Below are positions 832 to 18,508 of a DNA stretch of 18,508 nt, piece after piece. The stretch is from IMG/VR virus record IMGVR_UViG_3300017649_000004, one strand, 5' to 3'. A model generated the notes under the pieces. That model was not told where the DNA came from. It searched no databases and worked only from the letters and a program-made list of their open reading frames with translations. Origin of the DNA: a virus. Its lineage: Duplodnaviria > Heunggongvirae > Uroviricota > Caudoviricetes. Within the stretch, counting starts at the first letter, position 1, and each line of letters begins with the position of its first letter. The translations under genes were made by a program, and so were the position numbers.

Positions 832-3800
832 ATGACTGCAATTCGCGTTGAACTCCAGCTTGCCGACGGCTCCTTTACCAGCGGTCTGCTGCGTGCCGGT
901 CAGTCGATGGCGGAGTTCGAGCGGCAGCTCGTCCGGGCCAATCCGCGGCTGCGCCAGTTCGCTCAGAACGGCCAGAGTGTCGTAACCTCGATGGCTTCCG
1001 CGGCGCAGGCGTCGCGGGGCTTCCTTGCATCCCTGCGTGACGTGTCGATCGTTGCCGGCACCCTGTCTATGGGTATCGGCGCGATCGGCCGCGCAGCTAA
1101 TGGCTGGCTCGGCAAGATTGTCGAAATCAACGCCGAGATGGAACGCCTGACCTACCTCATGGCGGGTATGTCCACCAAGGACGACCCGATGAGGGACGCT
1201 GCTCAGAACGTCGCCTATCTTCGTGAGCAGACCAAGCAGGTTCCCTTCTCGCTGCGCGCCGTTTCGAGCGCATTCGTCAAGCTGAAGGCTACCGGCATTG
1301 ACCCGACCGCCGGCGCACTTCAGGCCCTGACCGATGGTGTCGCAGCCTTCGGCGGCTCCGACCAGCACCTTGAGCGCATTGTTCTCGGTATCTCGCAGAT
1401 GGCGGGTAAGTCCGTCATCCAGATGGAAGAAATGCGCCAGCAGCTCGGCGAGTCCATGCCGGGCGCAATGCAGATCATGGCGCGCGCAATGGGCGTGTCG
1501 GTGGCCGATCTGTCGAAGGCCATCTCGACCGGCACCGTTGCTGCAAGCTCTGCCCTTGAGAAGTTCTATCAGGAGGTCAATCGCACCTTCGGCGGCTCGG
1601 CCCAGCGCATGATGCGCTCCTTCCAGGGCCAGGTCTCGCAGCTGCAAACCAACCTCCAGATGCTGGCAACGAATGAGGGCGGCACCGGCTTCTTCGACCA
1701 GATCAAGAACCAGCTCGTCGACCTCAACGACTTCCTGAGCGGCAACATCGCCAAGCAGCTGTCGCTGGACCTCGGCAATGCGCTCAATGCCGGCGTCCAG
1801 GTCTTCCGCACGATCATTGAAAGCGCCTGGCAGTTCCGCAGCGAGCTCGTAGGTATTGCAACGATCGCTGCGACGGGCATTGGCCTGCGAATGCTTGATG
1901 GCCTGCTCAACTCGCTGGCGCTGACCATGACTTCGAGCGCCGTTGCCATGCGCGGCTTTGCGAAGTCCATGATGGACGCTCACTCGATGTGGGTGCTGGC
2001 GAACTCGGCAGGTCTGACCCTTTCGAACACTTTCGTCCGTCTTCAGTATGCCGGCCTTGCTGCGGCGACGGCCATGCGTGCGATCATTACCAGCGCGGCC
2101 GCTTTTGCGCCTGTCATCATCGCCCTTGGCTCTGCGATTTATCTGCTTGCAGATCACTTCGGGCTGCTCGGCTCCAAGACGGAGAAGGCTTACGAGGAGC
2201 TGATCAAGTTCGGCGCCGCGTCCAAGAAGATCGCGGAACAGACCGTTCAGGATCGCATCGATGAACTGCTCTCCGAAGAGCAGTCCCTCATGCGCCAGAT
2301 CGAGATCCACCGGAACTTCCTTGCCAATCCGAACCTGAGCGAAGCGGGCCGCCGCCGGCACGAGGAAAACATCCGCAAGTTCGAGGAAGACCTCGAGGCT
2401 CTGCGCAAGAAGATCAAGGACACGCGGGTGGAGGGCGACGATGCAATTCTGGCCGCACAGAACCGCGAGGAAGAACAGGCAATCCAGGCGCTTGATCGCA
2501 AGCTCAAAGACCGGCTCTTTGACATCCAGCGTCGCTATCGCCAGCTGACGACCGACCTCAGCGAAGAATACGACGAGGAGCGCGCAAAGGTCGAGGAGAC
2601 CGGCAAGTCGTTCACCGCGCTTCAGGAGCAGTATCAGAAGAACCTCGCCGACGCGCGTGCGCAGCTCTACGAGGAGACCCGCCGGATCATTCTCGATGAG
2701 CTGAAGGCCGAGGAAGAGAAGATGGAGCAGGTCGGTGAGGCTGAAAAGCGTCACTACGAGCTGCGCATCATGCACCTTCAGACGCGCCTTGCTGACCTTC
2801 GCAAGCAGCGCGAGGCAGAGCTCGGCTTCGGCATTGATCACCTCAAGGCCGCCGGCGGTCAGGAGAAGAAGGTTCAGGCCGGTCAGTCGATCCTCAATAC
2901 TCTCGAAGAGGAAATCGAAGGCATCAAGGCCAAGATGGCCGGCGCATCGGGTGCTGCCACCGAAATGTGGGCGCGCATCCAGAACGGCGACTTCGGCTCG
3001 GTCGAGGAAGGTGGCGAGGCAGTCCAGGAGCTGCACGACAAGCTCGTCAAGGCGGCCGAGGCTAAGGAAGTGCTCGACCGGCTGATGAAGGGCCAGTCGA
3101 AGGCTGAGGCTGACCTTGAGAAACTGCGCCTGAAGCTCATCGAAGACGAGATGGAGCTCATTGAGCGCCGGATGGGCCGTGAGCTTTCCGACGAAGAGCG
3201 CTTCATCCTGCGCCTCAAGCACGGCTACTACGAGGGCCTTGGCTCGATCGAGAAGATCCGCGAGGCAATCGGCGGCGCCAATGTCGAGTTCCGCAACCAG
3301 GAAGGCGCTGCTGCCAAGGTTGGCCGTGCGATCAAGGAAGACGCGTTTGGTGACGCGGCGGTCAAGGCTGTCGAGAACGTCGACAAGGCCGCACGCAATC
3401 TCGTTTCCACGATCCACAATCTGTCCGGCGCGCTCGATGGCGTGAATTTCGACCAGTTCGCCACGCGTGCGATGAACTCGCTCGGCGGCTTTACTGGCAG
3501 CTTCCTTGCGCCTGGCGCTCATGCCGGCGGCGAGGCAATCACCCGTCACGCCGGCTCGTTCCTTGATCTGATTGGCCGCGCCGAGGGCACCGACAAGGGC
3601 CGCGGCTACAACGAAACCCTCGCCTATGGCCGCTTCACCGGTGGTCCGCGCAACCTCGTCGCGATGACGCTCGACGAGATCGACGCGCTCCAGACGCAGA
3701 TGCTGCGCCACCCGGGCAACCACTTCAATTCGTCGGCTGTCGGTCGCTACCAGATCGTGCAGAAGACCCTGCGCAATTTGCGCAAGAAGCTTGGCCTGTC

Positions 3801-5535
3801 GGGCGACATGCTCTTTACGCCCGATCTTCAGGATCAGCTTGCTATCGCGCTGATGAAGGGCCGCGGCAACGACGTGGCGGGTCTTCGCAACGAGTGGGAA
3901 GGTCTGCGCCGCGTTTCTCCGGACGTGATCCGCGAGGCTTACGGGCGCCAGATGTCGGGCGCCTCGATTGGTCCGACCATTTCGAACGCCGCACCTGAGC
4001 AGAAGCCCATTGGTCCGGTCGCAACGCCGCAGTCGAACGCACTCCTTCAGGAACACAATGATCTTCTGAAGGATCGCCTGCGCGTCACCGAACAGCTTGA
4101 GAAGGAAGCCGAGAAGCTTCTGCCCAAGCGCGAGGAGCTGGATCAGCAGGCCGCTGAGCAGGAGCGCCTCGAGTTCCTCGAGGAGCTGAAGACCAAGATC
4201 CGCGAGGCATCTGAAGGCACCGAGAAGCTTGGCTCCGTCCACAAGATGGTGATCGACAAGATCACCAAGGGCGGCATTGGTCCGAACTCCAGCCGCGACC
4301 CGGACGCTCCGGAATACGCCGAAATCATCAAGGCGGCCAAGGAACTCGACGCGCTCAACAAGAAGCTGGCCGAGAACGAGAAGCTGCGCAAGGAAGACGA
4401 GCGCGACCTGAAGGAGCTTCAGGAAGACCGCCTCGAGCGCGAGCGCAAGCTGGGCGAGGCACGCCAGAAGGTTGGCGATCCGCTCTATGAAGGCCAGAGC
4501 CGCGAGCTGACGGAGCTCATCAAGAAGTATGACGAGGCGATCGAGCGCCGCAAGAAGCTCTACGGCAGCAACGATCACCCTGAAGTCAAGGCTCTGATCG
4601 AGGAGCGCGACGCAGCTATCCGTCAGCAGCGCCAGATCGAGTCGGCTGAGCGTCAGGCGGCACTTGCTGCCGAGCGTCGTGAGCTTCAGCAGTCGGTGAT
4701 GACGCAGGCTCAGATCCGCGAGCAGGCAATGCAGCAGGATCTCGCGCGCGTCGACCGCTGGATCGAGATGGCGCGTGCCGCCGGCGAAGACGAGGTTACG
4801 ATCACGCAGTTCGCCGAGGAGCAGAAGGCGCTCATTCGCCAGAAATATGCTCAGCAGGCCGACCCGCTCGCACGTCAGATGAAGGAGTGGGGCGACCTTC
4901 AGGGCAATCTTGCCCAGGCGTCTGCACGCTGGATGGAATCGATGGCCGACGGCCTCACCGACCTGATCATGGGCACCGGTGATCTGCGTCAGGCGATCCG
5001 CGGCATCCTGCGCGACATCATCAACATGGGCATCAAATACCTCATGTCGCAGTTCATGGGCGGCAAGGGTAAGGCCAGCGCGGCGGTGTCTGCGCGTGCG
5101 GCAGTTGGCAAGGGCGGCAAGATGGGTGGCGGCAAGAAGCTGTTCCCGATGGCCCACACCGGCGGCATCATCGGCCAGACTGCGCTGCGCGGCCGTATGG
5201 CATCGCCCGTCAGCTTCATCGGCGCCAAGAAGTATCACACCGGCGGCATCGTCAATAAGGGCCTGCTGCCGTCTGAAGTGCCGATCATCGCCAAGAAGGG
5301 TGAAGGCGTCTTCACGCCCGAGCAGATGGAAGCGATGGGCTCGTTCCAGCAGAACCAGGCCTTCCAGATCAATGCGCCGATCACCGTCAACGGCTCTGCC
5401 GGCACGCCCGAGCAGAACGAGGATCTCGCCAAGAAGATGGCGAAGCAGATGGAAGTCACCATGCGCACGGTCATTGCTGACGAGGTTCGCAAGCAGCAGC
5501 GGCCGGGCAACGCGCTCAACCGTAGAGGTCGATAA
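832..5535 (+). CDS. Tape measure protein, 1567 aa, with internal lambda-type lysozyme/lytic transglycosylase domain
   Basis: N-terminal tape-measure signature (LGISQMAGKSVIQMEEMRQQLGESMPGAMQIMARAMG), hydrophobic segments around aa 340-445, long E/K/R/A-rich coiled coils, C-terminal HTGG..HTGG..SEVPIIAKKGEGV segment; position between chaperones and gpM-like gene. Confidence 0.95.
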   Translation: MTAIRVELQLADGSFTSGLLRAGQSMAEFERQLVRANPRLRQFAQNGQSVVTSMASAAQASRGFLASLRDVSIVAGTLSMGIGAIGRAANGWLGKIVEINAEMERLTYLMAGMSTKDDPMRDAAQNVAYLREQTKQVPFSLRAVSSAFVKLKATGIDPTAGALQALTDGVAAFGGSDQHLERIVLGISQMAGKSVIQMEEMRQQLGESMPGAMQIMARAMGVSVADLSKAISTGTVAASSALEKFYQEVNRTFGGSAQRMMRSFQGQVSQLQTNLQMLATNEGGTGFFDQIKNQLVDLNDFLSGNIAKQLSLDLGNALNAGVQVFRTIIESAWQFRSELVGIATIAATGIGLRMLDGLLNSLALTMTSSAVAMRGFAKSMMDAHSMWVLANSAGLTLSNTFVRLQYAGLAAATAMRAIITSAAAFAPVIIALGSAIYLLADHFGLLGSKTEKAYEELIKFGAASKKIAEQTVQDRIDELLSEEQSLMRQIEIHRNFLANPNLSEAGRRRHEENIRKFEEDLEALRKKIKDTRVEGDDAILAAQNREEEQAIQALDRKLKDRLFDIQRRYRQLTTDLSEEYDEERAKVEETGKSFTALQEQYQKNLADARAQLYEETRRIILDELKAEEEKMEQVGEAEKRHYELRIMHLQTRLADLRKQREAELGFGIDHLKAAGGQEKKVQAGQSILNTLEEEIEGIKAKMAGASGAATEMWARIQNGDFGSVEEGGEAVQELHDKLVKAAEAKEVLDRLMKGQSKAEADLEKLRLKLIEDEMELIERRMGRELSDEERFILRLKHGYYEGLGSIEKIREAIGGANVEFRNQEGAAAKVGRAIKEDAFGDAAVKAVENVDKAARNLVSTIHNLSGALDGVNFDQFATRAMNSLGGFTGSFLAPGAHAGGEAITRHAGSFLDLIGRAEGTDKGRGYNETLAYGRFTGGPRNLVAMTLDEIDALQTQMLRHPGNHFNSSAVGRYQIVQKTLRNLRKKLGLSGDMLFTPDLQDQLAIALMKGRGNDVAGLRNEWEGLRRVSPDVIREAYGRQMSGASIGPTISNAAPEQKPIGPVATPQSNALLQEHNDLLKDRLRVTEQLEKEAEKLLPKREELDQQAAEQERLEFLEELKTKIREASEGTEKLGSVHKMVIDKITKGGIGPNSSRDPDAPEYAEIIKAAKELDALNKKLAENEKLRKEDERDLKELQEDRLERERKLGEARQKVGDPLYEGQSRELTELIKKYDEAIERRKKLYGSNDHPEVKALIEERDAAIRQQRQIESAERQAALAAERRELQQSVMTQAQIREQAMQQDLARVDRWIEMARAAGEDEVTITQFAEEQKALIRQKYAQQADPLARQMKEWGDLQGNLAQASARWMESMADGLTDLIMGTGDLRQAIRGILRDIINMGIKYLMSQFMGGKGKASAAVSARAAVGKGGKMGGGKKLFPMAHTGGIIGQTALRGRMASPVSFIGAKKYHTGGIVNKGLLPSEVPIIAKKGEGVFTPEQMEAMGSFQQNQAFQINAPITVNGSAGTPEQNEDLAKKMAKQMEVTMRTVIADEVRKQQRPGNALNRRGR
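3556..3945 (+). other. Lambda R-like (lambda lysozyme family) domain within the tape measure protein
   Basis: SFLDLIGRAEGTDKG / SSAVGRYQIV / FTPDLQDQLAIALMKGRG / EWEGL parallel lambda R AFLDMLAWSEGTDNG / STGAGRYQLL / FSPKSQDAVALQQIKERG / IWASL; putative catalytic Glu codon at 3583-3585. Confidence 0.85.
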
Positions 5536-5888
5536 TGGCACTGCCTACCTTCAATCCGCCGATTGGCCCCTCCCCTGGCACCGCGCACCGGCGCCAGATC
5601 AACCTTTGGGAAGCTGAGTTCGGGGACGGCTACTCGCAGCCGACCCCGAAGGGCATCAACCATATCCGCAAGACCACTGAGCTGAAGTGGGAAGCGCTCA
5701 CCTATGAGCAGATGGAAGCAATCATCGGCTTCTTCGAGCGCATGGGCGGCAACAAGCCCTTCTACTACAAGCCGTTCGGCTACTCGACGCGCATCAAGTG
5801 GACGTGCAAGGACTTCTCTGCACGCACGGACGAAGGCATCTGGTCGGTCACCGCGGAACTGATCGAGAGCTTCACGAACGAGGTTTAG
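5535..5888 (+). CDS. Minor tail protein, lambda gpM-like (distal tail), 117 aa
   Basis: AEFGDGYSQ..KGIN, FF..GG.KPF.Y, WTCKD, TAELIESF pattern; TAATG overlap with the tape measure stop. Confidence 0.85.
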   Translation: MALPTFNPPIGPSPGTAHRRQINLWEAEFGDGYSQPTPKGINHIRKTTELKWEALTYEQMEAIIGFFERMGGNKPFYYKPFGYSTRIKWTCKDFSARTDEGIWSVTAELIESFTNEV

Positions 5889-5947: not shown

Positions 5948-6658
5948 ATGTCTATCCAAGCTGAAGCCCAAAGCCTATCGCCGAGCGGTATCATCTCGCT
6001 TTTCTCGGTCGATACGTCGAACCTCAATGGCCCGACGCTGCACTTCGTGATGGGCTCGGACGCTGACAAGCCCGTCAAGTTCAACGACGTCGAATATCAG
6101 CCGGTCGATGTCGAGTTCGAAGGTCTCGAGACGACCGGTAACGGCGCGCTCCCGCAGCCGAAGATCCGCATCTCCAACGTCGATGGTCTGGCACAGGCAA
6201 TGGTGTCGACCTGGGGCGAGCTGCTCGGCTGCACGCTCTATCGCATCCGCACCTACAAGCGCTTCCTCGACGGCCAGCCGGACGCCGATCCGGAGGCTTT
6301 CTACGGCCCCGACATTTTCCGCTTCGAGCGCAAGGCGTCCGAAAACAGCGTCTTCATCGAATGGGAGCTGTCGGCCGCGCTCGACCAGGAAGGCAAGATG
6401 CTGCCGGGCCGAACGGTCATCCGCAATACGTGCCTGTGGCGCTACCGCTACTACAACGCCGCTTCCGGCACCTTCGACTATTCCAAGGCCGAGTGCCCTT
6501 ACACGGGCAACAAATACTTCGACATCAACGACATGCCGGTGAGCCATCCCGCGCAGGACGTGCCCTCGCGCCGCCTGTCCTGCTGCCGCGCCCGCTTCGG
6601 CGCCAACAACCCCCTGCCCTTTGGCGGCTTTCCCGGTGTTCAGAGGGTGAACGTATGA
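5948..6658 (+). CDS. Minor tail protein, lambda gpL-like, 236 aa
   Basis: YQPVDVEFEGLE..G.G.LPQPKIRISN, RIRTYKRFLDG, IEWELSAALD, Cys-bearing C-terminus ending FGGFPG. Confidence 0.9.
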   Translation: MSIQAEAQSLSPSGIISLFSVDTSNLNGPTLHFVMGSDADKPVKFNDVEYQPVDVEFEGLETTGNGALPQPKIRISNVDGLAQAMVSTWGELLGCTLYRIRTYKRFLDGQPDADPEAFYGPDIFRFERKASENSVFIEWELSAALDQEGKMLPGRTVIRNTCLWRYRYYNAASGTFDYSKAECPYTGNKYFDINDMPVSHPAQDVPSRRLSCCRARFGANNPLPFGGFPGVQRVNV

Positions 6659-7455
6659 TCCAGCAGAAATTTGCTGAGGCCTTCGCTGACGCAAAGGCGC
6701 ACGCGCGCCAGGAGTTTCCGGCCGAGAGCTGCGGCGTCATTTCGGGTGGCAAGTATTACGCCTGCGAGAACGTCGCCGAGCCGGCCAAGAACCACAAGGA
6801 AGACGACCCCAACTGCCCCTGCAAACTCTGCTCCTTCCGGATCGCGCCGGAGGTCTACCAGAAGTTCGTGCTCGGCGATGGCGTCGACTTCATCGTTCAT
6901 TCGCACCCGAACGGACCCTTCTACCCCTCGCGTGCAGATATGGAAGGTCAGATCCAGACGGCTGTGCCCTGGGCAATCATCGCGCTCGATGAGGAGCGCG
7001 TTGGTGATCCTGTCTGTTGGGGCGACCAGCTGCCGATCGCGCCGATCCTCGGCCGCTCCTTCATGCACGGCGTCCACGACTGCTACTCGCTGGTGCGCGA
7101 CTGCTTCCGCCTTGGCCGTGAGGAGCTCGCCAAGCAGGACATTCCCTGGCGCTTCGATCCGGTCAAGCTGATCGAGGTTCCGCGCAACGACGCCTGGTGG
7201 GACGCGGGCGACGACCTCTACATGAAGAATTTCATCCGCGCCGGCTTCTTCCAGATCGACCAGGACGAAGCTGAGCCGGGCGATTGCTTCCTGATGAAGA
7301 TCCGTTCCGAGCAGTTCAACCACGCCGGAATCCTGATCGACAACAACCTGATCATTCACCACCTGCCCGCGCGTCTTTCGCGCCGGGAACCCGCCGGCAT
7401 TTGGGCTCGTCAGGCAGGCGTGTGGCTGCGTTATGCGGGGGTGCCCGTTGCGTAA
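6655..7455 (+). CDS. Tail assembly protein, lambda gpK-like (JAB/MPN plus NlpC/P60), 266 aa
   Basis: ATGA overlap with the gpL-like stop; ESCG...HSHP..PS..D JAB motif; GRSFMHGVHDCYSLVRD and NHAGI...HH NlpC/P60 motifs. The ORF-track start at 6361 is an upstream extension. Confidence 0.9.
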   Translation: MIQQKFAEAFADAKAHARQEFPAESCGVISGGKYYACENVAEPAKNHKEDDPNCPCKLCSFRIAPEVYQKFVLGDGVDFIVHSHPNGPFYPSRADMEGQIQTAVPWAIIALDEERVGDPVCWGDQLPIAPILGRSFMHGVHDCYSLVRDCFRLGREELAKQDIPWRFDPVKLIEVPRNDAWWDAGDDLYMKNFIRAGFFQIDQDEAEPGDCFLMKIRSEQFNHAGILIDNNLIIHHLPARLSRREPAGIWARQAGVWLRYAGVPVA

Positions 7456-8086
7456 GGTCTATCTGCATGGCGCGCTCGGCGAGGAGTTCGGGCGCGAGTT
7501 CGAGCTGAATGTGAAGACGGCCGGCGAAGCCATTCGTGCCCTTTCTGCCAATTTCCCGCAGTTTCTCCAGCGCATCCGCGAAGGCGCATGGCATGTCGTG
7601 CGCGGCAAGAGCGTCGAGAAGGGCATGTCGCTCGGCGAGGACGACATTTCGACCTTCAATCTCGGTCGCGGCGATCTGCACATCATGCCGGCCGTCGCAG
7701 GCTCCAAGAACAGCGGCGGACTTCTCAAGATCATTCTCGGCGCCGTGCTTGTAGGCGCTGCATTTCTGTTCACCGGCGGCGCGCTCGCCCAGCCGATCAT
7801 GGCTGGTGCCTTGGGCGGCGTTACCGGCACGCAGCTTGCGCTCGTTGGCGTGGCGGTGGCCGTTGCCGGCGTGTCCCAGCTTCTGGCGCCTGAAGAGGAG
7901 TCGAAGGACGACGATGACTCGTCTTTCACGATGGCGGGCCCCGGCAACACCTATGAGCAGGGCCAGCCCGTGCCGCTGGTCTACGGCGAAGTCTACACCG
8001 GCGGTGTTCTCATTTCGGGCGGCATCGACATCGAGCGGATGGCCGCAAACGGAAAGAAGAGCGGCTCGATCGGAGGCAAGAAGTGA
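7448..8086 (+). CDS. Tail assembly protein, lambda gpI-like, about 212 aa
   Basis: Likely TTG start (LRKVYLHGALGEEFG); ubiquitin-like N-terminus, Gly/Ala-rich hydrophobic middle, NTYEQGQPVPLVYGE...GGVLIS C-terminus. Confidence 0.85.
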   Translation: MRKVYLHGALGEEFGREFELNVKTAGEAIRALSANFPQFLQRIREGAWHVVRGKSVEKGMSLGEDDISTFNLGRGDLHIMPAVAGSKNSGGLLKIILGAVLVGAAFLFTGGALAQPIMAGALGGVTGTQLALVGVAVAVAGVSQLLAPEEESKDDDDSSFTMAGPGNTYEQGQPVPLVYGEVYTGGVLISGGIDIERMAANGKKSGSIGGKK

Positions 8087-11000: not shown

Positions 11001-12717
11001 CCTGATCGGTGACGGGCGCGTCGAGGTCACGGCGGTATGGAATGCCAACACCGAGCCTGACCTTGCCGGCTATGACTTCGAGGTCAGCACCGGTTCGAGC
11101 TGGATCGGTTTTCCGACCACCACGCCGCGCTATTCCTTCAGCGCGCTGCCCGGCCAGGCCTTCGAGGCAAGGGTTCGCGCACGCGACAAGTCCGGCAACA
11201 CGTCGCCCTACACGGCGGTTGTCTCGCACACCGCGGCGAGCGACACCACGCCTCCGCCGACGCCGACCGGTGTTGAGCTTCAGGCGGGCCTCACCTCGCT
11301 CTGGCTGAAGTGGGACAATCCGGATGTCGCGGACTTCTCCCATATCGAGATTTGGGAGAACAGTTCGAACACCTTCTCGACTGCGACCCTGATCACCACG
11401 ACGCCGGCAAGCTCGTTTGCACGCACGGGTTTGGGCGAGAACGTCACGCGCTACTACTGGCTGCGTGCCGTAGACACCTCTGGCAACAAGAGCCCGACGA
11501 CGGCTGTTGTCTACGGCACGACGGCAAAGCTGCCGGAAGTCTCGCGCATCCAGTTCGCGGGCCTTACCTTCACGCCGAACTCGCCTTCGGCCAACCGTAT
11601 TGCCTGGACCTCGTTCACGGCAACCTACGGCCAGGCAGGCGCAACCCCGACCTCGAAGGCCGTAACCGCCGGCAATGCGTTGTGGAGCTCGGGCACGCTC
11701 TACCTCTACTACGTCGAGGGCGAGACGACGCTTCGCTCGACCACCACGCTGTCGCAGGTGTTCACTAATCGCGGCCATCCGGTAGCGACTTACCGCGGTG
11801 GCACCGACATCGAGCTTGCTACCGGCAAGACCCTCATCAATGGTGCCGAAATCATCACCGGCACGGTGGGTGCTGCCCAGCTGGTGGCAAGCTCGGCGAT
11901 CATTACCAACACCGCGCAGCTGGCTGACGCCATCATCACGAGCGCCAAAATCGTGGAGCTCGACGCAGCCAAGCTGAAGGCAGGCACGGCGATCGCCGAG
12001 ACGATCACCGTTGGTTCGCAGTCGCTGGCCACGATCCGTGACTGGGCGGAAAATCCGGTCGATCGCGTCAATGCCGGCACCACGCTCATTGAGCCCGGCA
12101 AGATCCGGATCGCCGGTGCGACCACGCTGGAGCACTGGAAGACGGGTCCGGACAGCACCGAAATCAACGGCGGCGCGATTGCTGCGAACACGATCAAGGC
12201 GAACTCGGCCGTCATCGGTATGCGCGGCATCACGCTTGAGGGCCTGACCTTCGAGCACAACTCGCCTTCGGCAAACAGCGTGAGCTGGACCGGCGGCACG
12301 ATCCGCTACACCGACGACAACGGCTCGAACACCTCGAAGTCGATCGCTGCCGGCAATGCTGCCTGGACGTCCGGAACCCTCTATGTCTACTGGGTGAAGG
12401 GTGCGACGGCCCTGTCGACCACGACGAACTTTGCCACGGCCAATGGCGACAACAACGTCATCCTGGCAACCTACCGCGGTGGCGTGCTTCTGTTTGCCGA
12501 CTACGGCCGCACGGTCATCGATGGCGGCCAGATCAAGGCTCAGTCCATCGACACCGCCCAGCTCAAGGTGGGCTCGGTCACCGCCGGCGTGATGAATGTG
12601 TCCTCGCTGTCGGCGATCACCGGCAATATGGGCCTGCTCTCCGCCGGCAAGATCCAGAGCGTTGACGGCAAATTCGTCATCGACCTCGACAACCGCTTCA
12701 TTTCGATTGAGGTTTAA
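8083..12717 (+). CDS. Central tail fibre / host specificity protein, lambda gpJ-like, 1544 aa
   Basis: GTGA overlap; GGGKG, EAISEGPIYGL, WTNNPAWIFYDLL..RYGLG, YCDQMVP..EPRF, LRPGDIIAVSD motifs; about five FN3/Ig-like domains (about 10000-11520); C-terminal SLSAITGNMG trimer-type end. Confidence 0.93.
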   Translation: MITFDGETKPGTHLLPPAPAGRGGGKGSASNDANTLRSNARARLIEAISEGPIYGLVNGAKSIFFDQTPLMNEDGTFNFKDVQWQEHKGYADEGYFNGHNAVETPVSVETQVKKATGPVVRTIVDENADAVRVILRIPALVKQTDKGLKKTSLSYAIDVRAHQGSWHTAVTHTLKEDKTLSPFQIAHRVELPEGGSPWDVRVRRITDDSDDDKLQNDLYWEGYIILVEGKFIYPHTAAIAMECNAEEMGTSIPPRTYHVKGLLVNIPVNYNPETRTYSGIWNGNFKIGWTNNPAWIFYDLLVNNRYGLGEFISPDIIDKWSLYTIAQYCDQMVPSGYRNGDTGEMIYEPRFTYNGVINSRDEAYFVLQSISQAWRGMAYWALGKVFATADMPADPVKLVTPANVIGGEFEYSGTAIKARHSVIQVKWNDPDDFYRPATEVVIDTDLLHKYGWREKTIQLRGCTSRGLAHRYGKWVIDTEQNETETLTYSASWDHAELRPGDIIAVSDPRKANIRAGGRVVSHNDLEIELDAPFEWQEGETYNLMLTMPNGQIETRAILAFLDDRTVCVASAYSKEALPDAIWSITGSDITPRRYRVLTVEETEPNIFKITALFHDPTKYARVENGISFEPLPYERSSRTSIPPTNLQVHETGYVHNGQQVNMLTLSWTPPQNFLTRGFLVTVDTPNDGRIDLGVTTANYMEMRHTDAGEYTFYVQTVSYAGVVSEPATITFSAVGQAGFPLPTVSDLRLVDHPTSTEFAGADLRIQWKNNFAQELSGSVSDTPSPHYTFNVVKIYHAGTGQLLRQERVYGETYTYPIVANRQDCANHGIANPSRSLRVVVTVSDVFGRESAPIEKTFTNPKPAATTPVYFINGNMIFMSWPAPEDPDVEGYILHRSTTPGINVDTATPYYEGGNNSITVIGDYETVYYFKLAAYDAFGKYDLNWSSEIAITTLSDGADVDPPAQPTGLILSSSLIGDGRVEVTAVWNANTEPDLAGYDFEVSTGSSWIGFPTTTPRYSFSALPGQAFEARVRARDKSGNTSPYTAVVSHTAASDTTPPPTPTGVELQAGLTSLWLKWDNPDVADFSHIEIWENSSNTFSTATLITTTPASSFARTGLGENVTRYYWLRAVDTSGNKSPTTAVVYGTTAKLPEVSRIQFAGLTFTPNSPSANRIAWTSFTATYGQAGATPTSKAVTAGNALWSSGTLYLYYVEGETTLRSTTTLSQVFTNRGHPVATYRGGTDIELATGKTLINGAEIITGTVGAAQLVASSAIITNTAQLADAIITSAKIVELDAAKLKAGTAIAETITVGSQSLATIRDWAENPVDRVNAGTTLIEPGKIRIAGATTLEHWKTGPDSTEINGGAIAANTIKANSAVIGMRGITLEGLTFEHNSPSANSVSWTGGTIRYTDDNGSNTSKSIAAGNAAWTSGTLYVYWVKGATALSTTTNFATANGDNNVILATYRGGVLLFADYGRTVIDGGQIKAQSIDTAQLKVGSVTAGVMNVSSLSAITGNMGLLSAGKIQSVDGKFVIDLDNRFISIEV
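11545..12564 (+). repeat. Two diverged copies of an approximately 110-aa module in the gpJ C-terminal region (11545-11883 and 12220-12564)
   Basis: GLTFTPNSPSANRIAWT..AGNALWSSGTLYLYYVEGET..VATYRGG..G+TLING versus GLTFEHNSPSANSVSWT..AGNAAWTSGTLYVYWVKGAT..LATYRGG..G+TVIDG; short DNA identities persist (aactcgccttcggc, gccggcaatgc, taccgcggtggc). Confidence 0.85.
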
Positions 12718-12725
12718 GCTTGAAA

Positions 12726-12744
12726 GTAAGGCGGCACTTACTTA
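12726..12744 (+). promoter_or_regulatory. GTAAG-N7-TTACTTA motif, copy 3 (after gpJ)
   Basis: GTAAG gcggcac TTACTTA; also reads as the dyad AAGTAAG-N6-CTTACTT; ends 11 nt before ATG 12756, where no SD is visible. Confidence 0.7.
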
Positions 12745-12755
12745 CTGTCTAAACC

Positions 12756-13472
12756 ATGGCGAAGAAGCTCTATGCTGACGGCACGACCGGTAAGGTAGCA
12801 ATCTACGATCCGGCCGTGCCCGGGGCGTTCACCAACCCGCTCGCGAACCTCAACGCGGTCTATTTCCATTCCGACCTTGATTACGTCGGCGTGGCGGCCG
12901 TGCTCGACTTTACGGTGACGCACCCTGCACGCGGCACGGGCGGCAGCAGCACTCAGCACTCCTATCTCGAGCCTAACCCGGCGTCCGGCCTGGTCTCCGG
13001 TCTCAACCACGATCTCGGCTATGTTCCGCACGCGCTCGTCTTCGTCGGCAATGACATGTTGCCGGCCAACATGCAGATCCAGACGAGCGGATCCTCCTAC
13101 CGGACGGTAGCGGTCGACCTGACCACGACACAGGTGCGCGTCTTTGAGACGGCATGGGTTTATCAGCACTCGCTGCCGGCCCTGACCGTCACCTACAAGA
13201 TCGTCCTGTTCACGCCGAAGATTTCCCCGTCCGGCAATGAGACCCTTCACATCACGCAGAGCAGCTTCGTCGCCTCGCGGGGCAAGCTCAACACCGCCTA
13301 CAACTACCTGCGCCGCGCCGTCTCGAGCCCGATGTTCTGGTTCTCGAAGGGCAAGACGGCGGACGTAGCGAACGGCTCCTTCAAGATCGTCACGGCCAAC
13401 GGCAGCGTCATCAACCGCTCGCCCTACAACGGCTCGTTCGCTGGCGAGGCTGGCCTCGGAGTTGAGGTATGA
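12756..13472 (+). CDS. Putative tail-tip structural protein, 238 aa, beta-rich
   Basis: Phage-like codon usage, directly after gpJ, ATGA-coupled to the next gene. Function inferred from position and composition only. Confidence 0.6.
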   Translation: MAKKLYADGTTGKVAIYDPAVPGAFTNPLANLNAVYFHSDLDYVGVAAVLDFTVTHPARGTGGSSTQHSYLEPNPASGLVSGLNHDLGYVPHALVFVGNDMLPANMQIQTSGSSYRTVAVDLTTTQVRVFETAWVYQHSLPALTVTYKIVLFTPKISPSGNETLHITQSSFVASRGKLNTAYNYLRRAVSSPMFWFSKGKTADVANGSFKIVTANGSVINRSPYNGSFAGEAGLGVEV

Positions 13473-14347
13473 GCTTCTACGCCTCGAACAATCGCTTCTA
13501 CATCACGAACTCGGCCGGCAAGGTGATCTTCGACACCAACAAGCCGATGCCGCACATCGTCCAGACGCTGACGGCCCAGGTCTCGGTTTCCTTCCCGCAG
13601 GTCGATTCCACCTACTGGCGCTCGGAGACGAAAATCTTCTCTGGCTCCTATTTCTGCCCCACCCAGGTCTACGAGTGCCGCTATGTCTATGGCTGCGAAT
13701 GGGAGAATGTCTGCGGCCCCAAGCAGGTCTGCGGCTACAAGAGCGTGTGCAACTACAATGTCGTCACGGGGCAGTATGAATGCGGGCTGCAATGGGTCTG
13801 TGAGACGCAGAACGTCTGCGAGCAGCAGAACGTATGCGATTACCGTTGGAAGTGCCAGAATTGGGACACCTATGGCGATCTCTATGAGATCAGGCAGGGC
13901 TTCGACTACACCGCGAAGGACTGGCAGGCCACCTATGACCTCGGCAGCATCACCGGTGGCATTCAGGCCGACTTCCTGCTGGTCAACTGCCAGGCCACTC
14001 GCACCGCGCAGGGCAACCTGTCCGACATCGGCCCGATCCCCTGCGGCCTGCCGCTCGGCAGCTGGTTCGTGGCGAACAATTCCTCGATCGTTGAGGTCGT
14101 TTCGGACCTTCGCGACGGCGAACCGTTCCTGACCCGGATCATGTCGGTCTTCGTTGAGGGCGGCAAGGTCAAGGTTCAGTTCAAGCACTCGAACCGGGAC
14201 TTCCGCGCTGTGCGTGGCTACTGGGAACAGGCGTGTTCCTTCAACATGTTCCCGCCCTTCGTCGGCGGCATTCCGACCACGCCGCCGACCGGTATCTCGT
14301 CCTACACCTTCAATTTCACCATTCAGGTTGGAAAGTTCACGATCTAG
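13469..14347 (+). CDS. Putative tail-tip/receptor-binding protein, 292 aa, with an 11-Cys ladder insertion
   Basis: ATGA overlap, GAGG SD; beta-rich body; Cys codons at 13655, 13676, 13694, 13712, 13730, 13748, 13781, 13799, 13817, 13835, 13853. Confidence 0.6.
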   Translation: MSFYASNNRFYITNSAGKVIFDTNKPMPHIVQTLTAQVSVSFPQVDSTYWRSETKIFSGSYFCPTQVYECRYVYGCEWENVCGPKQVCGYKSVCNYNVVTGQYECGLQWVCETQNVCEQQNVCDYRWKCQNWDTYGDLYEIRQGFDYTAKDWQATYDLGSITGGIQADFLLVNCQATRTAQGNLSDIGPIPCGLPLGSWFVANNSSIVEVVSDLRDGEPFLTRIMSVFVEGGKVKVQFKHSNRDFRAVRGYWEQACSFNMFPPFVGGIPTTPPTGISSYTFNFTIQVGKFTI

Positions 14348-14356
14348 GAGATGACA

Positions 14357-14722
14357 ATGGAAGCAAGCGGACTCAGCAGCTCTGAAATGGAAGAGTTGGT
14401 CGCAGAGCAGAACGCACAGCGGCCGGAAGCCTACAAGACGGCCCCGCGCTACCCGGTCGACGCCATCCTCCCGCAGCCGGTGATGGATGACGATGTTGTC
14501 GTTGCCTGGATTATTCCCCTCACCATGCGCTCGAAGGGCTTCTCGCACACCCTCTATGAGCGCTGGGAGTGCGCTGAAGACGAGCGGTTTGCCCCGCACG
14601 ATCCTCAAGCCTCGCGCCTGCTTGAGCGCATCATCCTGCGCCTCATCAATGACAGGGACATCTTTGACCGCTGCGCCGATGCCCTTGAAGCCAAGATCGC
14701 AGCGAAGAACCAGGGAGAATGA
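14357..14722 (+). CDS. Hypothetical protein, about 121 aa (acidic; possible assembly chaperone)
   Basis: SD AGGAG at 14346-14350 fits ATG 14357 better than 14351; no recognisable motif. Confidence 0.6.
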   Translation: MEASGLSSSEMEELVAEQNAQRPEAYKTAPRYPVDAILPQPVMDDDVVVAWIIPLTMRSKGFSHTLYERWECAEDERFAPHDPQASRLLERIILRLINDRDIFDRCADALEAKIAAKNQGE

Positions 14723-14986: not shown

Positions 14987-15265
14987 ATGGCTGACACACC
15001 TCAGATGACGATTACGCCGGCCAAGGTCGGCTTCGCTCTTTCTCTGGCTGCGGCAGTCACCCTTGGATGGAATGCCGTCTCCTATTTCAAGGCTATTGAG
15101 CTGAAGAACTTCGAGCAGGATCAGGCGATCCAGGGCTTGAAGGAGGCGACCACGCGCATTGAGCGCTCGACCGATCGCCTTTCCACCGAGACCGGCAACC
15201 TCCGCATCGCCGTAGAGCGACTGACAACGGTCATCGACCGAGTTGACGCTGGAGGTAAAAAGTAA
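14987..15265 (+). CDS. Membrane protein with N-terminal TM helix and coiled-coil tail, 92 aa; putative holin or antiholin
   Basis: ATG 14987 with SD GGGAG 8 nt upstream; VGFALSLAAAVTLGWNAV TM segment then heptad coiled coil; directly upstream of the endolysin. Confidence 0.6.
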   Translation: MADTPQMTITPAKVGFALSLAAAVTLGWNAVSYFKAIELKNFEQDQAIQGLKEATTRIERSTDRLSTETGNLRIAVERLTTVIDRVDAGGKK

Positions 15266-15789
15266 TGCCCGCTGTTCCTGCATCGTGGATGCCGGATGCG
15301 CCCATGAAGCGCATCGTGGTTCACTGGACCGCCGGCTCTCACATCGCATCGGCTCTCGACAGGGAGCACTATCACATCATCGTTGAAGGTGACGGCAACG
15401 TCGTTCGCGGCCAGATGCCGATCACCGCCAATGTCCCGCCACTGCGCGAGGGCAGGTATGCCGCGCACACGCGCAACTGCAATTCCTATTCGATCGGCGT
15501 GTCGGCTTGCGGAATGGCAGGCGCGACCGAGAGCCCGTTTAACCCCGGCAGGTTCCCGATCAGCGAACGCCAGTTCCGCAAGCTCGCTGAGGTAATCGCC
15601 GATCTCGCCAAGCGATACAAGATCCCGGTCACCGACCAGACCATCCTGACGCACGCTGAAGTTCAGCCGAACCTCGGCATCAAGCAGGCTGGCAAGTGGG
15701 ACTACACCCGGCTCGTCTTCAAGCCGGAGCTGAAGGGTGCCAAGCCCGTCGGTGACTATCTGCGCCAGCTCGTAAAGGCGGCCATGTGA
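15265..15789 (+). CDS. Endolysin, N-acetylmuramoyl-L-alanine amidase (Amidase_2, T7-lysozyme-like), 174 aa
   Basis: RIVVHWTAG, HYHIIVEGDG, AHTRNCNSYSIGVSAC, ILTHAEV, GKWD; SD GGAGGT; TAATG overlap; no signal or SAR segment and no cell-wall-binding domain seen. Confidence 0.9.
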   Translation: MPAVPASWMPDAPMKRIVVHWTAGSHIASALDREHYHIIVEGDGNVVRGQMPITANVPPLREGRYAAHTRNCNSYSIGVSACGMAGATESPFNPGRFPISERQFRKLAEVIADLAKRYKIPVTDQTILTHAEVQPNLGIKQAGKWDYTRLVFKPELKGAKPVGDYLRQLVKAAM

Positions 15790-16657: not shown

Positions 16658-18508
16658 ATGAACGCTCCTGAAGAATGGCTTGCCTTCGCTGAAGTCTACA
16701 ACGACCGGGAACGTTTCCCTACTCTTGCAGACGTAGGACTTCATCTAGGATATTCCTATCAGACCGTCCGGAACAAAGCAGCGATCCTGCGCGGGAGAAA
16801 GCGTCGCGGTGAAGATGTTCCGGAACTCATCAGCCGCGTCGTTACAAGCTCAAGGGACGCGACCGAACAGCTTTCTGCACACGATCATGCTCAGAAGCGC
16901 GCGGACGCGCTCAGGGACGCTGTGCGTTCGATTTTGACGCGATCCAGATACCCTGTCGTCAATCCTGAAGCGCTCGTTGTCGAAAGCTTTGTGCAGACGG
17001 TCTATGACCGGATCACTGGTCAGCCGAAGGAGAAGGAAGGCACGCCGCGCACCTGGCTGTCTGACACGCTCCGGGTGGAAGGCGTTGAGGATCCTCGCGG
17101 CCGCACCTTCCTCTTTACGTCGGCGCAGAACGACGCGGAGGTTCACGAAGGCTTCTGGCGCTCGCTGCAAACCTACGCCAACGTCCTCGACGCCGACATC
17201 GTGATCGGCCCCCTCACCTACGAGACGCAGTGGTGGAGCGAGAACAACCCGCTCAGCCGCTCCTATGCTCCGGAAATCAGCGACTATCTCTGCTTTGGGC
17301 AGATGGAGATTGGTGACTCGTTCATTTTCGCCGGCGAAATGAACACCCTGCCGACCGCGCGCCGGCCGATTTCGGACCTGACGACCTATTCGCGCGGCCG
17401 CTGGGCAGTGTTCCCGCACCCGATGATCCAGCTCAAATCCGTGCCCTCGACCGACCCGAACCGGCAGGCGCACCAGGTCATGACGACCGGCTCTGTGACC
17501 AGGCCGAAGATCATCCCGCGCAAGGCCGGTGTGAAGTCCATCTTCCATCAGGTGATCGGTGCCACCATCGTCGAATTTGACGACGAAGGCGATGTCTTCT
17601 GCCGGCAGATCGTGGCGCAGGAAGATGGCTCCTTCTACGACCTCGACATTTACGTCAGCGGCGACGACTTCCGCTTCCATGATGGCGTCGAGGCGATCGT
17701 TTATGGCGACCTGCACATTGCCAAGGCAGACCCCAAGAACTGCGTGGCCTCCTTTGGCATCATGCCGCACGATCCGCAGCGCTATCACTATGAAGGCTCG
17801 ATGCTCGAGACCCTGAAGCCTGCGAAGGTGTTCCTGCACGACATCCACGACCACGAGGCGCGCAATCACCACCACATCCACGACGCGGCCTATTCCTTCG
17901 AAATGGCCTATCGCAAGCGCGACAGTGTGGAGCAGGAAGTCTTCTGGTCCGCGGATTTTCTCTACGGCCTGACGCTCGCCTATGACGACACGCAGATCGT
18001 TGTTGTCGACTCCAACCACGACCTTGCCCTTGAGCGCTACGTGCGCGAGGGCCGCTACCGGAACGACGGCATCAACCTGCCCTACGGCTTGAAGCTCGAG
18101 GCGGCCTATATCGACTACCGCCGGCGGGCAGCTGAAGCTCTGGAGAAGGGTCACAACGTGCCGACCTTCTCCCTGCTCGAATGGGCGATCCGTGACGCGC
18201 TTGATCCGATCGAGCTGCCGGTCACCTGGGTGCATGACGGCCAGTCTCACCTCGTCAATGGAATCGAGCACGGCAATCACGGTTTCCGCGGCGCGAACGG
18301 CGCGAAAGGAACGGTTGCAGGCTTTGCGGCGCTCGGCTGCAAGATGAGCATCGGCGACAAGCACTCGCCGGAGATCCTCGATGGCGTCTACGTGGCGGGC
18401 ACGCAGCAGCTCCAGATGGGCTACAACAAAGGCCCCAGCGGATGGGCGGTAACAAACATCGTCCAGTATCCGAACGGCGCGCGCACCCTCGTTACCTTGC
18501 AACACGGT
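16658..18508 (+). CDS. HTH plus calcineurin-like metallophosphoesterase protein, similar to phage T5 A1 family (3'-truncated, at least 617 aa)
   Basis: My own translation of frame 2 is open from ATG 16658 (SD AGGGG) to the window end. N-terminal HTH-like segment (TLADVGLHLGYSYQTVRNKAAIL); TSAQN, EMNTLPTA, TTGSVT, KAG, FHQVIGA, GSFYDL blocks; GDLH (17705), HDIHD (17837), SNHD (18011), HG, GDKH (18353), MGYNKGPSGW. The A1 resemblance is from memory, not a search. Confidence 0.75.
   Translation, partial: MNAPEEWLAFAEVYNDRERFPTLADVGLHLGYSYQTVRNKAAILRGRKRRGEDVPELISRVVTSSRDATEQLSAHDHAQKRADALRDAVRSILTRSRYPVVNPEALVVESFVQTVYDRITGQPKEKEGTPRTWLSDTLRVEGVEDPRGRTFLFTSAQNDAEVHEGFWRSLQTYANVLDADIVIGPLTYETQWWSENNPLSRSYAPEISDYLCFGQMEIGDSFIFAGEMNTLPTARRPISDLTTYSRGRWAVFPHPMIQLKSVPSTDPNRQAHQVMTTGSVTRPKIIPRKAGVKSIFHQVIGATIVEFDDEGDVFCRQIVAQEDGSFYDLDIYVSGDDFRFHDGVEAIVYGDLHIAKADPKNCVASFGIMPHDPQRYHYEGSMLETLKPAKVFLHDIHDHEARNHHHIHDAAYSFEMAYRKRDSVEQEVFWSADFLYGLTLAYDDTQIVVVDSNHDLALERYVREGRYRNDGINLPYGLKLEAAYIDYRRRAAEALEKGHNVPTFSLLEWAIRDALDPIELPVTWVHDGQSHLVNGIEHGNHGFRGANGAKGTVAGFAALGCKMSIGDKHSPEILDGVYVAGTQQLQMGYNKGPSGWAVTNIVQYPNGARTLVTLQHG

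Follow-up and report, generated by a model that had tools for sequence, protein, structure and literature searches.

The window analysed here, an 18,508-nt stretch of the Caudoviricetes record IMGVR_UViG_3300017649_000004 (an 82.5-kb viral contig, ~70% complete), is the tail module of a lambda-like siphovirus, and one of its genes encodes a 292-amino-acid (aa) protein, P0001, with a periodic ladder of Cys residues. We conclude with strong confidence that the insert carrying this ladder is a single long intrachain beta-hairpin, because two independent lines agree on its topology: an AlphaFold2 model of the protein and the covariation of Cys spacing among its relatives. The covariation does not depend on any model and is the stronger line of evidence. 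P0001 is probably a tail-tip accessory protein of the siphovirus, in which a sandwich domain, paired with the 238-aa product of the upstream gene (n238), carries the Cys-stapled hairpin of variable length as a probe of the host surface.

Cysteine ladder and predicted hairpin

Translation of positions 13469–14347 on the plus strand bore out exactly the pattern that an earlier sequence-only reading had reported at 13655–13855, in which 11 Cys residues are mostly separated by five others. They occupy residues 63, 70, 76, 82, 88, and 94 before the central loop and 105, 111, 117, 123, and 129 after it, with spacers of 6,5,5,5,5|10|5,5,5,5. The ladder had been described as a symmetric 5+5 arrangement; five mirrored pairs are indeed present, but C63 lies outside the mirrored set, which makes the arrangement 1+5+5. 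In the modelled register C63 faces G136, and no Cys mirrors it. Three other Cys residues (174, 192, and 256) are located outside the ladder, in the C-terminal part of the protein. The 18-nt DNA period that had been noted is likewise real but local, being restricted to 2.4 copies in the second arm (Table 1), and the two repeat units quoted for it are identical at 15/18 positions.

At the junction ATGA, the start codon of the P0001 gene shares bases with the stop codon of the 238-aa gene that precedes it, and immediately 5' of this start codon is a GGAG/GAGG stretch. An open reading frame (ORF) on the minus strand (13424–14608) overlaps the gene, and the plus-strand frame, rather than this one, was taken as the real gene because it has 112 profile matches and conserved synteny.

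The AlphaFold2 model, which was built from a 15-sequence alignment, had a mean predicted local distance difference test score (pLDDT) of 87.5 and a predicted template-modelling score of 0.66. The program DSSP assigned uninterrupted strands to residues 64–97 and 102–135, with a four-residue loop between them and pLDDT values of 76–90 along the strands. A single register, i + j = 199, is common to the strand ends and to all five Cys pairs, and the facing pairs are C70/C129, C76/C123, C82/C117, C88/C111, and C94/C105. Each arm has ~34 residues and is ~10–11 nm long, calculated at ~3.3 Å per residue. The sequence-only reading had proposed a two-stranded needle of ~30 residues per strand and ~10 nm, paired from C6–C7 out to C2–C11; the model contains a hairpin of 34 + 34 residues and places those same five pairs opposite each other. 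Modelling had also been named as the check that would separate a compact knot or disorder from a hairpin, and the hairpin was obtained with confidence. The location of the Cys residues at non-hydrogen-bonded sites, as the sequence-only reading had proposed, would be compatible with a four-residue loop closed at 97/102. Together, the model and the mirrored spacers place each Cys opposite its partner on antiparallel strands and nest the pairs so that the first residue meets the last, as in a cystine-ladder hairpin.

Mirrored covariation of Cys spacing among relatives

A first search identified 14 homologues of 254–328 aa, which were aligned with P0001 (n = 15). The numbers of Cys residues in the two arms were equal in all of these sequences (15/15), with counts of 2+2, 3+3, 5+5, 6+6, or 10+10. 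An exhaustive profile search then returned 112 matches, 34 of which fell below 1e-30, and the representatives added from it were <50% identical to one another. Of the 52 representatives aligned, 41 were ladder-bearing, defined as having at least five Cys residues in the insert, and exactly palindromic spacers, with at most two Cys residues left outside, were found in 37 of these 41. Two proteins (P0046 and P0049) were mirrored except for one off-by-one or off-by-two step. The number of rungs ranged from 2 to 10 among the ladder-bearing proteins and was 0 in some relatives.

The spacers were mixed in 12 of the 37 mirrored representatives, and a simple tandem repeat therefore cannot explain the pattern. 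Examples include 7,5,3,5,5,3,5,5,5|14|5,5,5,3,5,5,3,5,7 and 5,5,7,3|10|3,7,5,5, as well as 5,5,13|19|13,5,5, 11,13|9|13,11, and 19,15|18|15,19. When the spacers of each of the twelve proteins were compared with shuffles of that protein's own spacers, the combined Fisher p value was 6e-10. Loss of the Cys symmetry among homologues had been set beforehand as a refuting test, and what was found is that the symmetry is conserved and covaries with both the rung number and the mixed spacers. Judged on these alignments, the pattern is far beyond chance and conserved. Furthermore, 196 of the 200 arm spacers were odd, which makes the Cys period even and puts the Cys residues all on one face of the ribbon.

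The central loops were 4–20 residues long, and loops of four residues, which were found in P0004, P0012, and P0022, force a tight intrachain turn. The sequence-only reading had placed a turn within the sequence Y-NVVTGQ-Y. A turn does occur at this place (loop VVTG, residues 98–101 of the model), but the variation in loop length among the relatives is not that of a conserved motif.

The consensus of 177 C-x5-C units was C-G-[Y/W/F/N]-[E/Q/V]-[Y/N/W]-V, with Val preceding the next Cys in 61% of the units. In an extended strand, the Cys and aromatic residues of such a unit would be on one face and the Gly, Glu/Gln, and Val residues on the other; aromatic side chains would thus flank every rung, with two Val residues behind it. 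The rung units have no alternating hydrophobic face of the membrane-hairpin type. A hairpin of the kind that pore-forming toxins insert into membranes was rejected on this ground and because the strands are pinned by Cys. Foldseek searches of PDB and BFVD with the whole model gave nothing but hairpin-driven rows of low template-modelling (TM) score, namely rotavirus VP4/VP5* and the pore hairpins of lysenin, anthrax PA, and iota-toxin; these were also rejected as homologues, having TM scores ≤ 0.2 and root-mean-square deviations (rmsd) > 30 Å.

The spacing data also bear on two other arrangements of the arms. The six-residue Cys period equals that of the Tenebrio molitor antifreeze protein, a disulfide-braced beta-solenoid with 12-residue coils in which each sixth residue is a Cys bonded across the coil, and an insert built in this way would contain no hairpin. 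However, the solenoid pairs consecutive Cys residues sequentially and has no central loop, and it needs even counts within a run but no mirror symmetry, whereas the arms here have 3 or 5. Considering also the mixed spacers mirrored about the central loop in 12 representatives, the tight turn forced by the four-residue loops, and the hairpin given by AlphaFold2, we regard a solenoid as highly improbable. The arms might otherwise pair between subunits, forming a domain-swapped or interchain ladder that joins two or three tail-tip copies of the protein. The mirrored spacers would also be accounted for if identical chains exchanged arms in antiparallel fashion, tail-tip proteins sit on a threefold axis, and phage Milano uses many interchain disulfides (PMC10811340). 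Nevertheless, the presence of only four residues between the innermost Cys residues in several relatives favours an intrachain turn, and AlphaFold2 confidently predicts an intrachain hairpin for the single chain of P0001, so that pairing between subunits seems very unlikely.

A hypervariable insert on a conserved scaffold

The single intrachain hairpin lies between fixed flanks, and the length of the insert between them varies from 18 to 145 residues. At an overall identity of ~50%, the N-terminal 45 residues are 69–78% identical and the C-terminal core is 57–60% identical, with only 8–25% identity at the non-Cys positions of the hairpin. The longest ladder, with 20 Cys residues in arms of ~60 residues, is that of P0015, encoded on the metagenomic contig L001. 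At the other extreme, P0040 has almost no insert, P0051 and P0053 have only the basal Cys pair, which closes an aromatic hairpin, and P0050 has a Cys-free insert of similar length that is rich in Tyr, Trp, and Thr. In a structure search, unnamed viral clusters of 137–150 aa matched the core of P0001 alone, with TM scores by row of 0.64–0.68. Because of the insert-poor and Cys-free relatives and these core-only viral clusters, we conclude that the hairpin was inserted into a small sandwich that is older than it.

About 60 other profile matches share only the first ~45 residues with P0001 and continue with unrelated C-terminal sequences. Such a pattern is typical of a docking module carried on interchangeable distal parts, and the N-terminal ~45 residues would be such a module. 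In the second arm of P0001, the 18-nt duplication, whose units are translated as ETQNVC and EQQNVC, appears to mark the route by which rungs are gained.

The predicted partner protein n238 and the fold of the core

P0001 is predicted to form a heterodimer with n238, a protein with 26 homologues. The interaction scores derived from aligned errors (ipSAE) for the complex, with both proteins supplied as alignments, were 0.85, 0.88, and 0.83, and that of the best control was 0.00. The mark used for this score was reached by 58/80 solved complexes and 2/110 mismatched pairs, rates that are approximate because the alignments were supplied by the author. The pLDDT values of the partners were ≥ 85, and ≥ 78% of the contacts agreed between runs. 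The pass is unlikely to come from the memory of the model because no like complex has been solved, but the score expresses the confidence of the model rather than a measured interaction. The predicted interface of P0001 consists of residues 3–33 and 149–292, with zero contacts in residues 34–148, which leaves the hairpin free. The predicted interface therefore coincides with the conserved parts of the protein and excludes the hypervariable hairpin.

The sequence-only reading had described P0001 as a beta-sandwich, and this is supported by the modelled strands and by weak structural matches. The core matched 3h6j (Z 5.5, rmsd 5.0, 91 residues aligned), Kp32gp38 (Z 5.1, rmsd 3.3, 87 aligned), the Helix pomatia agglutinin (Z 4.6, rmsd 4.2, 86 aligned), phage K gp144 (Z 4.6), AP22 gp54 (Z 4.4), and T5 pb5 (Z 3.7). 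The model of n238 had a pLDDT of 86, and its residues 44–156 matched the same targets, which are sandwiches like those of tailspike C-termini and H-type lectins, at Z 5.0–6.1. Values of Z 4–6 are in the range of common arrangements, and the tool advises Z 8 for trust; the likeness of the predicted P0001 and n238 cores to H-type lectins and to the sandwich domains at the C-termini of tailspikes and receptor-binding proteins is therefore only weak. A paralogous relationship between n238 and P0001 was rejected at the sequence level (profile–profile probability, 0.8%).

Database searches were otherwise uninformative. Pfam and PHROG scans yielded nothing informative for P0001, n238, the 123-aa neighbour, ten relatives sharing the N-terminal module, or any of the 52 members of the alignment, and P0001 belongs to no family in either collection. 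A search of PDB with the P0001 sequence profile gave only chance-level rows (E ≥ 0.18), and a feature search of the ESM Atlas with P0001 gave no usable match.

A similar short two-strand motif was seen in three consecutive proteins, at ends that should meet. The C-terminus of gpJ (12640–12714) closes with a segment of the GKFVIDLDNRFISI type; in n238, ANGSFKIVTANGSVI lies close to the C-terminus and inside the predicted interface (residues 204–221; 13366–13420); and P0001 residues 5–22 (13481–13534) start with SNNRFYITNSAGKVIF. The n238 and P0001 motifs were weakly matched by hhalign (E 0.07). A strand-exchange "handshake" may link gpJ, n238, and P0001.

Genomic context and distribution

The genes are ordered TMP, gpM, gpL, gpK, gpI, gpJ, n238, P0001, and lysis genes (Table 1), and P0001 is followed by three small ORFs and then by an Amidase_2 endolysin gene (15265–15789). 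In all eight related loci (8/8), including the most distant, the end of gpJ is followed by an n238 homologue that ends at the start codon of a protein with the N-terminal module. In L007–L009, the last ~60 residues of gpJ (440–500 of the C-terminal query) are 47–49% identical and are the only part that is still recognizable. The tail-tip context claimed in the sequence-only reading is thus supported by both the Pfam and PHROG assignments and this synteny. Prophage copies occur in the genomes of Chelativorans, Nitratireductor, Roseovarius, Tabrizicola, Yoonia, and Pseudorhodobacter, all of which are Alphaproteobacteria, and the virus is a phage of soil and marine alphaproteobacteria. The carriers include the cultured strains Chelativorans composti JCM 17863 and Roseovarius gahaiensis GH877 as well as cultured Nitratireductor aquimarinus.

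Table 1. Features of the window, with the evidence for each.
Feature	Position	Strand	Evidence or remark
Tape measure (TMP)	832–5535		
gpM	5535–5888		
gpL	5948–6658		
gpK-like, JAB + NlpC/P60 domains	6361–7455		364 aa as longest ORF
gpI	7433–8086		
Lambda gpJ-like tip attachment/central fibre protein, 1544 aa	8083–12717	+	PF24801, PF13550, phrog_31, phrog_1727
n238, 238-aa partner gene, translationally coupled	12756–13472	+	Homologue directly upstream in L001, L002, L004–L009
P0001 gene, 292-aa Cys-ladder protein	13469–14347	+	ORF, 14 homologues, 112 profile matches
Conserved N-terminal module, residues 1–45	13469–13603	+	Profile matches, identity (69–82%), predicted contacts with the 238-aa partner
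Hairpin insert, residues 63–136 (C63; arm 1, 64–97; loop VVTG, 98–101; arm 2, 102–135)	13655–13876	+	AlphaFold2/DSSP, mirror covariation
18-nt tandem duplication within arm 2, units ETQNVC + EQQNVC	13796–13839	+	Tandem Repeats Finder: period 18, 2.4 copies, 84% matches
C-terminal part of beta-sandwich core, residues 137–292, moderately conserved	13877–14344	+	AlphaFold2 strands with pLDDT 81–97; main predicted n238 contact surface
123-aa downstream gene	14351–14722	+	No Pfam/PHROG match; kept next to ladder gene in L002, L004, L005, L006

The position of the gene also raises the question of whether the protein is part of the virion. In lambdoid phages, the interval from gpJ to the lysis genes houses morons and genes for fibre assembly, and P0001 could be an assembly chaperone for n238, for which the predicted tight complex would also be suitable, or could have a lysogeny or moron function after gpJ, like lambda lom and bor. 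Against this, its N-terminus is, by eye, unlike a signal peptide or membrane segment, and its gene is translationally coupled in the tail operon and is kept with the end of gpJ and n238 in distant phages. A hypervariable exposed insert combined with conserved docking surfaces is also unlike a chaperone; as read from the alignments, this combination would be the signature of a host-facing structural protein. A non-virion function is therefore considered unlikely.

Several other features of the region were noted. The gpK-like frame in its longest form overlaps gpL by ~300 nt; because the L002 homologue (261 aa) begins where gpL ends, an internal codon near 6655 is probably the true start. The intergenic gap between gpJ and n238 (12726–12744) contains GTAAG-N7-TTACTTA. 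In L001, upstream of the 10+10 protein P0015, the n238 homologue is split (L001:1-692) into called genes of 150 and 79 aa, with tblastn pieces at 1–450 and 462–623. A frameshift, a misassembly, or a partner that truly consists of two parts could account for this split. Past the lysis genes, an ORF of at least 617 codons (16658–18508, +) runs off the window and has no Pfam family at E ≤ 0.01.

Redox state of the cysteines

The hairpin could be real and its Cys residues still remain reduced or bind metal, either in two-coordinate, Cu(I)-type rung sites or in sites between the hairpins of neighbouring subunits on the threefold tip. The protein is made in the cytoplasm, a phage-encoded thiol oxidase was not found in the record, and P0050 keeps a long hairpin without Cys, so that disulfides are not essential to the fold. 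In T4 gp37 and gp12, metal ions are located on the tail-fibre axis. On the other hand, with two thiols per rung and rungs six residues (~20 Å) apart, no four-Cys site can form in a monomeric hairpin, and the totals of 3+3 and 5+5 arms are not divisible by four. The CxxC motifs that would be expected of zinc ribbons or metal clusters are absent, as are His partners. The even periodicity on one face (196/200 spacers) is the arrangement required for cross-strand disulfides at equivalent sites. Disulfides in virions have been documented in the Agrobacterium phage Milano, whose tail proteins are disulfide-bonded and include intrachain bonds in the short tail fibre (PMC10811340). Overall, reduced or metal-bound Cys residues appear decidedly unlikely, and the rungs are most likely disulfides that would form once the particle leaves the reducing cytoplasm.

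Cross-linking of the Cys residues by a radical SAM enzyme was rejected: the family (PF04055) had no match in the 82.5-kb record, although the controls matched in 14/14 genomes, and the neighbours of the P0001 gene are small unknown ORFs and the Amidase_2 endolysin gene. The only thiol-redox-like gene seen in the record is a 98-codon frame whose thioredoxin-family match, which is below threshold, covers the region of the active site (13.9 bits, E 0.003; C1:56745-56795, outside the window).

Proposed role of the hairpin at the tail tip

These results can be combined into a model of the tail tip in which n238 and P0001 probably bind as a pair to the trimeric central fibre formed by gpJ, at its conserved C-terminal end, where the heterodimer would be present in three copies. 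The five cross-strand Cys–Cys pairs, spaced six residues apart, would hold the two arms in register. A hairpin this long has no hydrophobic core, and the rungs would take the place of the missing core to produce a stiff, exposed rod. The hairpin is the fast-evolving and length-variable part of the protein; its rung number would change as six-residue units are gained or lost in both arms, and selection would restore equal arms after a gain in one arm, such as the 18-nt duplication in arm 2. Most likely, the rod would act as a probe of the host surface, with a spacer and tip reaching through the lipopolysaccharide (LPS) or exopolysaccharide to a receptor; alternatively, it may bind glycans along its aromatic face. 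We infer the disulfide chemistry, the presence of the protein in virions, its docking on gpJ, and its binding to a receptor.

Several observations weigh against this explanation. The particle, with its putative disulfides, is assembled in the reducing cytoplasm. DsbA was not found in the 82.5-kb record, which is ~70% complete; Erv1/ALR had no match in it either, but the control for that search matched 0 genomes, making the result uninformative. Exceptions to the mirror rule also occur, as it is broken in P0032 and in the protein of L007, both of which have equal counts with unequal spacers, and P0037 does not have the pattern. The structural matches of the core are weak (Z ≤ 5.5), and a Foldseek search of PDB gave no match to P0001 below 1e-3. 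When P0001, its first 60 residues, and n238 were searched with tblastn against 50,697 isolated-phage records, 0 matches were obtained. Lastly, the same record contains a 1331-codon frame that ends in a Peptidase_S74 chaperone domain (59.5 bits; C1:23248-23397, outside the window). Because of this separate 1331-aa S74-chaperone tail fibre, the ladder protein need not be the primary receptor binder and may be a second or later-stage recognition element.

Comparison with known systems and implications

Cys residues in theta-defensins are two residues apart, and the family is defined as cyclic peptides of ~18 residues with Cys at i, i+2, and i+4, whereas the insert of P0001 comprises 74 residues with a period of 6 in a 292-aa protein and has no sequence relationship to theta-defensins. 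Two or three rungs, in elements of 18 to 37 residues, are found in theta-defensins and in the cystine-ladder-like loop of algal HAP2 (PMC6327110). The theta-defensin ladder, protegrin, tachyplesin, and green-alga HAP2 share with P0001 the antiparallel strands and the cross-strand rungs that replace a core (PMC6327110), an arrangement deduced here from covariation. Unlike these cystine-ladder peptides, P0001 has five rungs (2–10 in its relatives) with six-residue spacing over 70–145 residues, forming a length-variable insertion in a folded phage protein.

Among phage proteins, the receptor-binding and accessory proteins of lambda- and T5-like tips (the gpJ C-terminal domain, T5 pb5, and side-fibre adaptors) resemble P0001 in their post-gpJ-like position and in the combination of a conserved N-terminal dock with a variable distal part; however, they have no detectable sequence homology to P0001 and no described long, disulfide-laddered hairpin. 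In phage Milano, which has a related alphaproteobacterial host, disulfides that arise outside the cell cross-link the tail, the baseplate, and the short tail fibre, indicating that the chemistry is feasible (PMC10811340). Milano differs in being a myovirus with scattered single links, mostly intersubunit, that lock the sheath, and it has no periodic intrachain ladder (PMC10811340). A variable surface beta-hairpin has been proposed as the receptor contact of the "tentaclins," C-type-lectin receptor-binding proteins that are targets of diversity-generating retroelements, but this hairpin is a short one on the surface of the domain, owes its diversity to the retroelement, and is not Cys-laddered, and the proteins have a C-type lectin and an Ig fold (PMC10743442). 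In searches of the full-text literature, neither a ladder of this kind nor a long hairpin stapled by disulfides was found in the description of any phage protein, in agreement with the sequence-only reading, which had known of no phage adhesin with this architecture. We therefore found no published counterpart to a greatly extended, length-variable cystine ladder on a phage tail-tip recognition protein, the function being our inference.

A bolder interpretation, which we offer only tentatively and as a possibility more doubtful than the probe itself, is that the hairpin is a new host-recognition organelle. It would be a self-supporting, redox-hardened rod of ~4 to ~20 nm, with its length determined by the number of rung units and tuned by selection to the thickness of the LPS or exopolysaccharide and with the tip loop or the aromatic face making the first specific contact; a rod with a variable tip loop of this kind can be likened to the stalk and knob of bovine ultralong antibody loops.

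Isolated two-stranded beta-ribbons of 10–20 nm, which have no core, are almost unknown in natural proteins, and the variation in rung number from 0 to 10, with arms in exact register, constitutes a natural experiment in stiff nanoscale rods. The topology of this hairpin was fixed by sequence covariation alone, without a solved structure. In the biology of the phages, n238 and the ladder protein represent an unannotated two-protein tail-tip module in widespread temperate phages and phage-plasmids of alphaproteobacteria (Hyphomicrobiales and Rhodobacterales), and the hairpin is the part of this module most likely to set the host range. Should the rungs be disulfides, redox conditions may affect infectivity, a dependence that has been proposed for phage Milano (PMC10811340).

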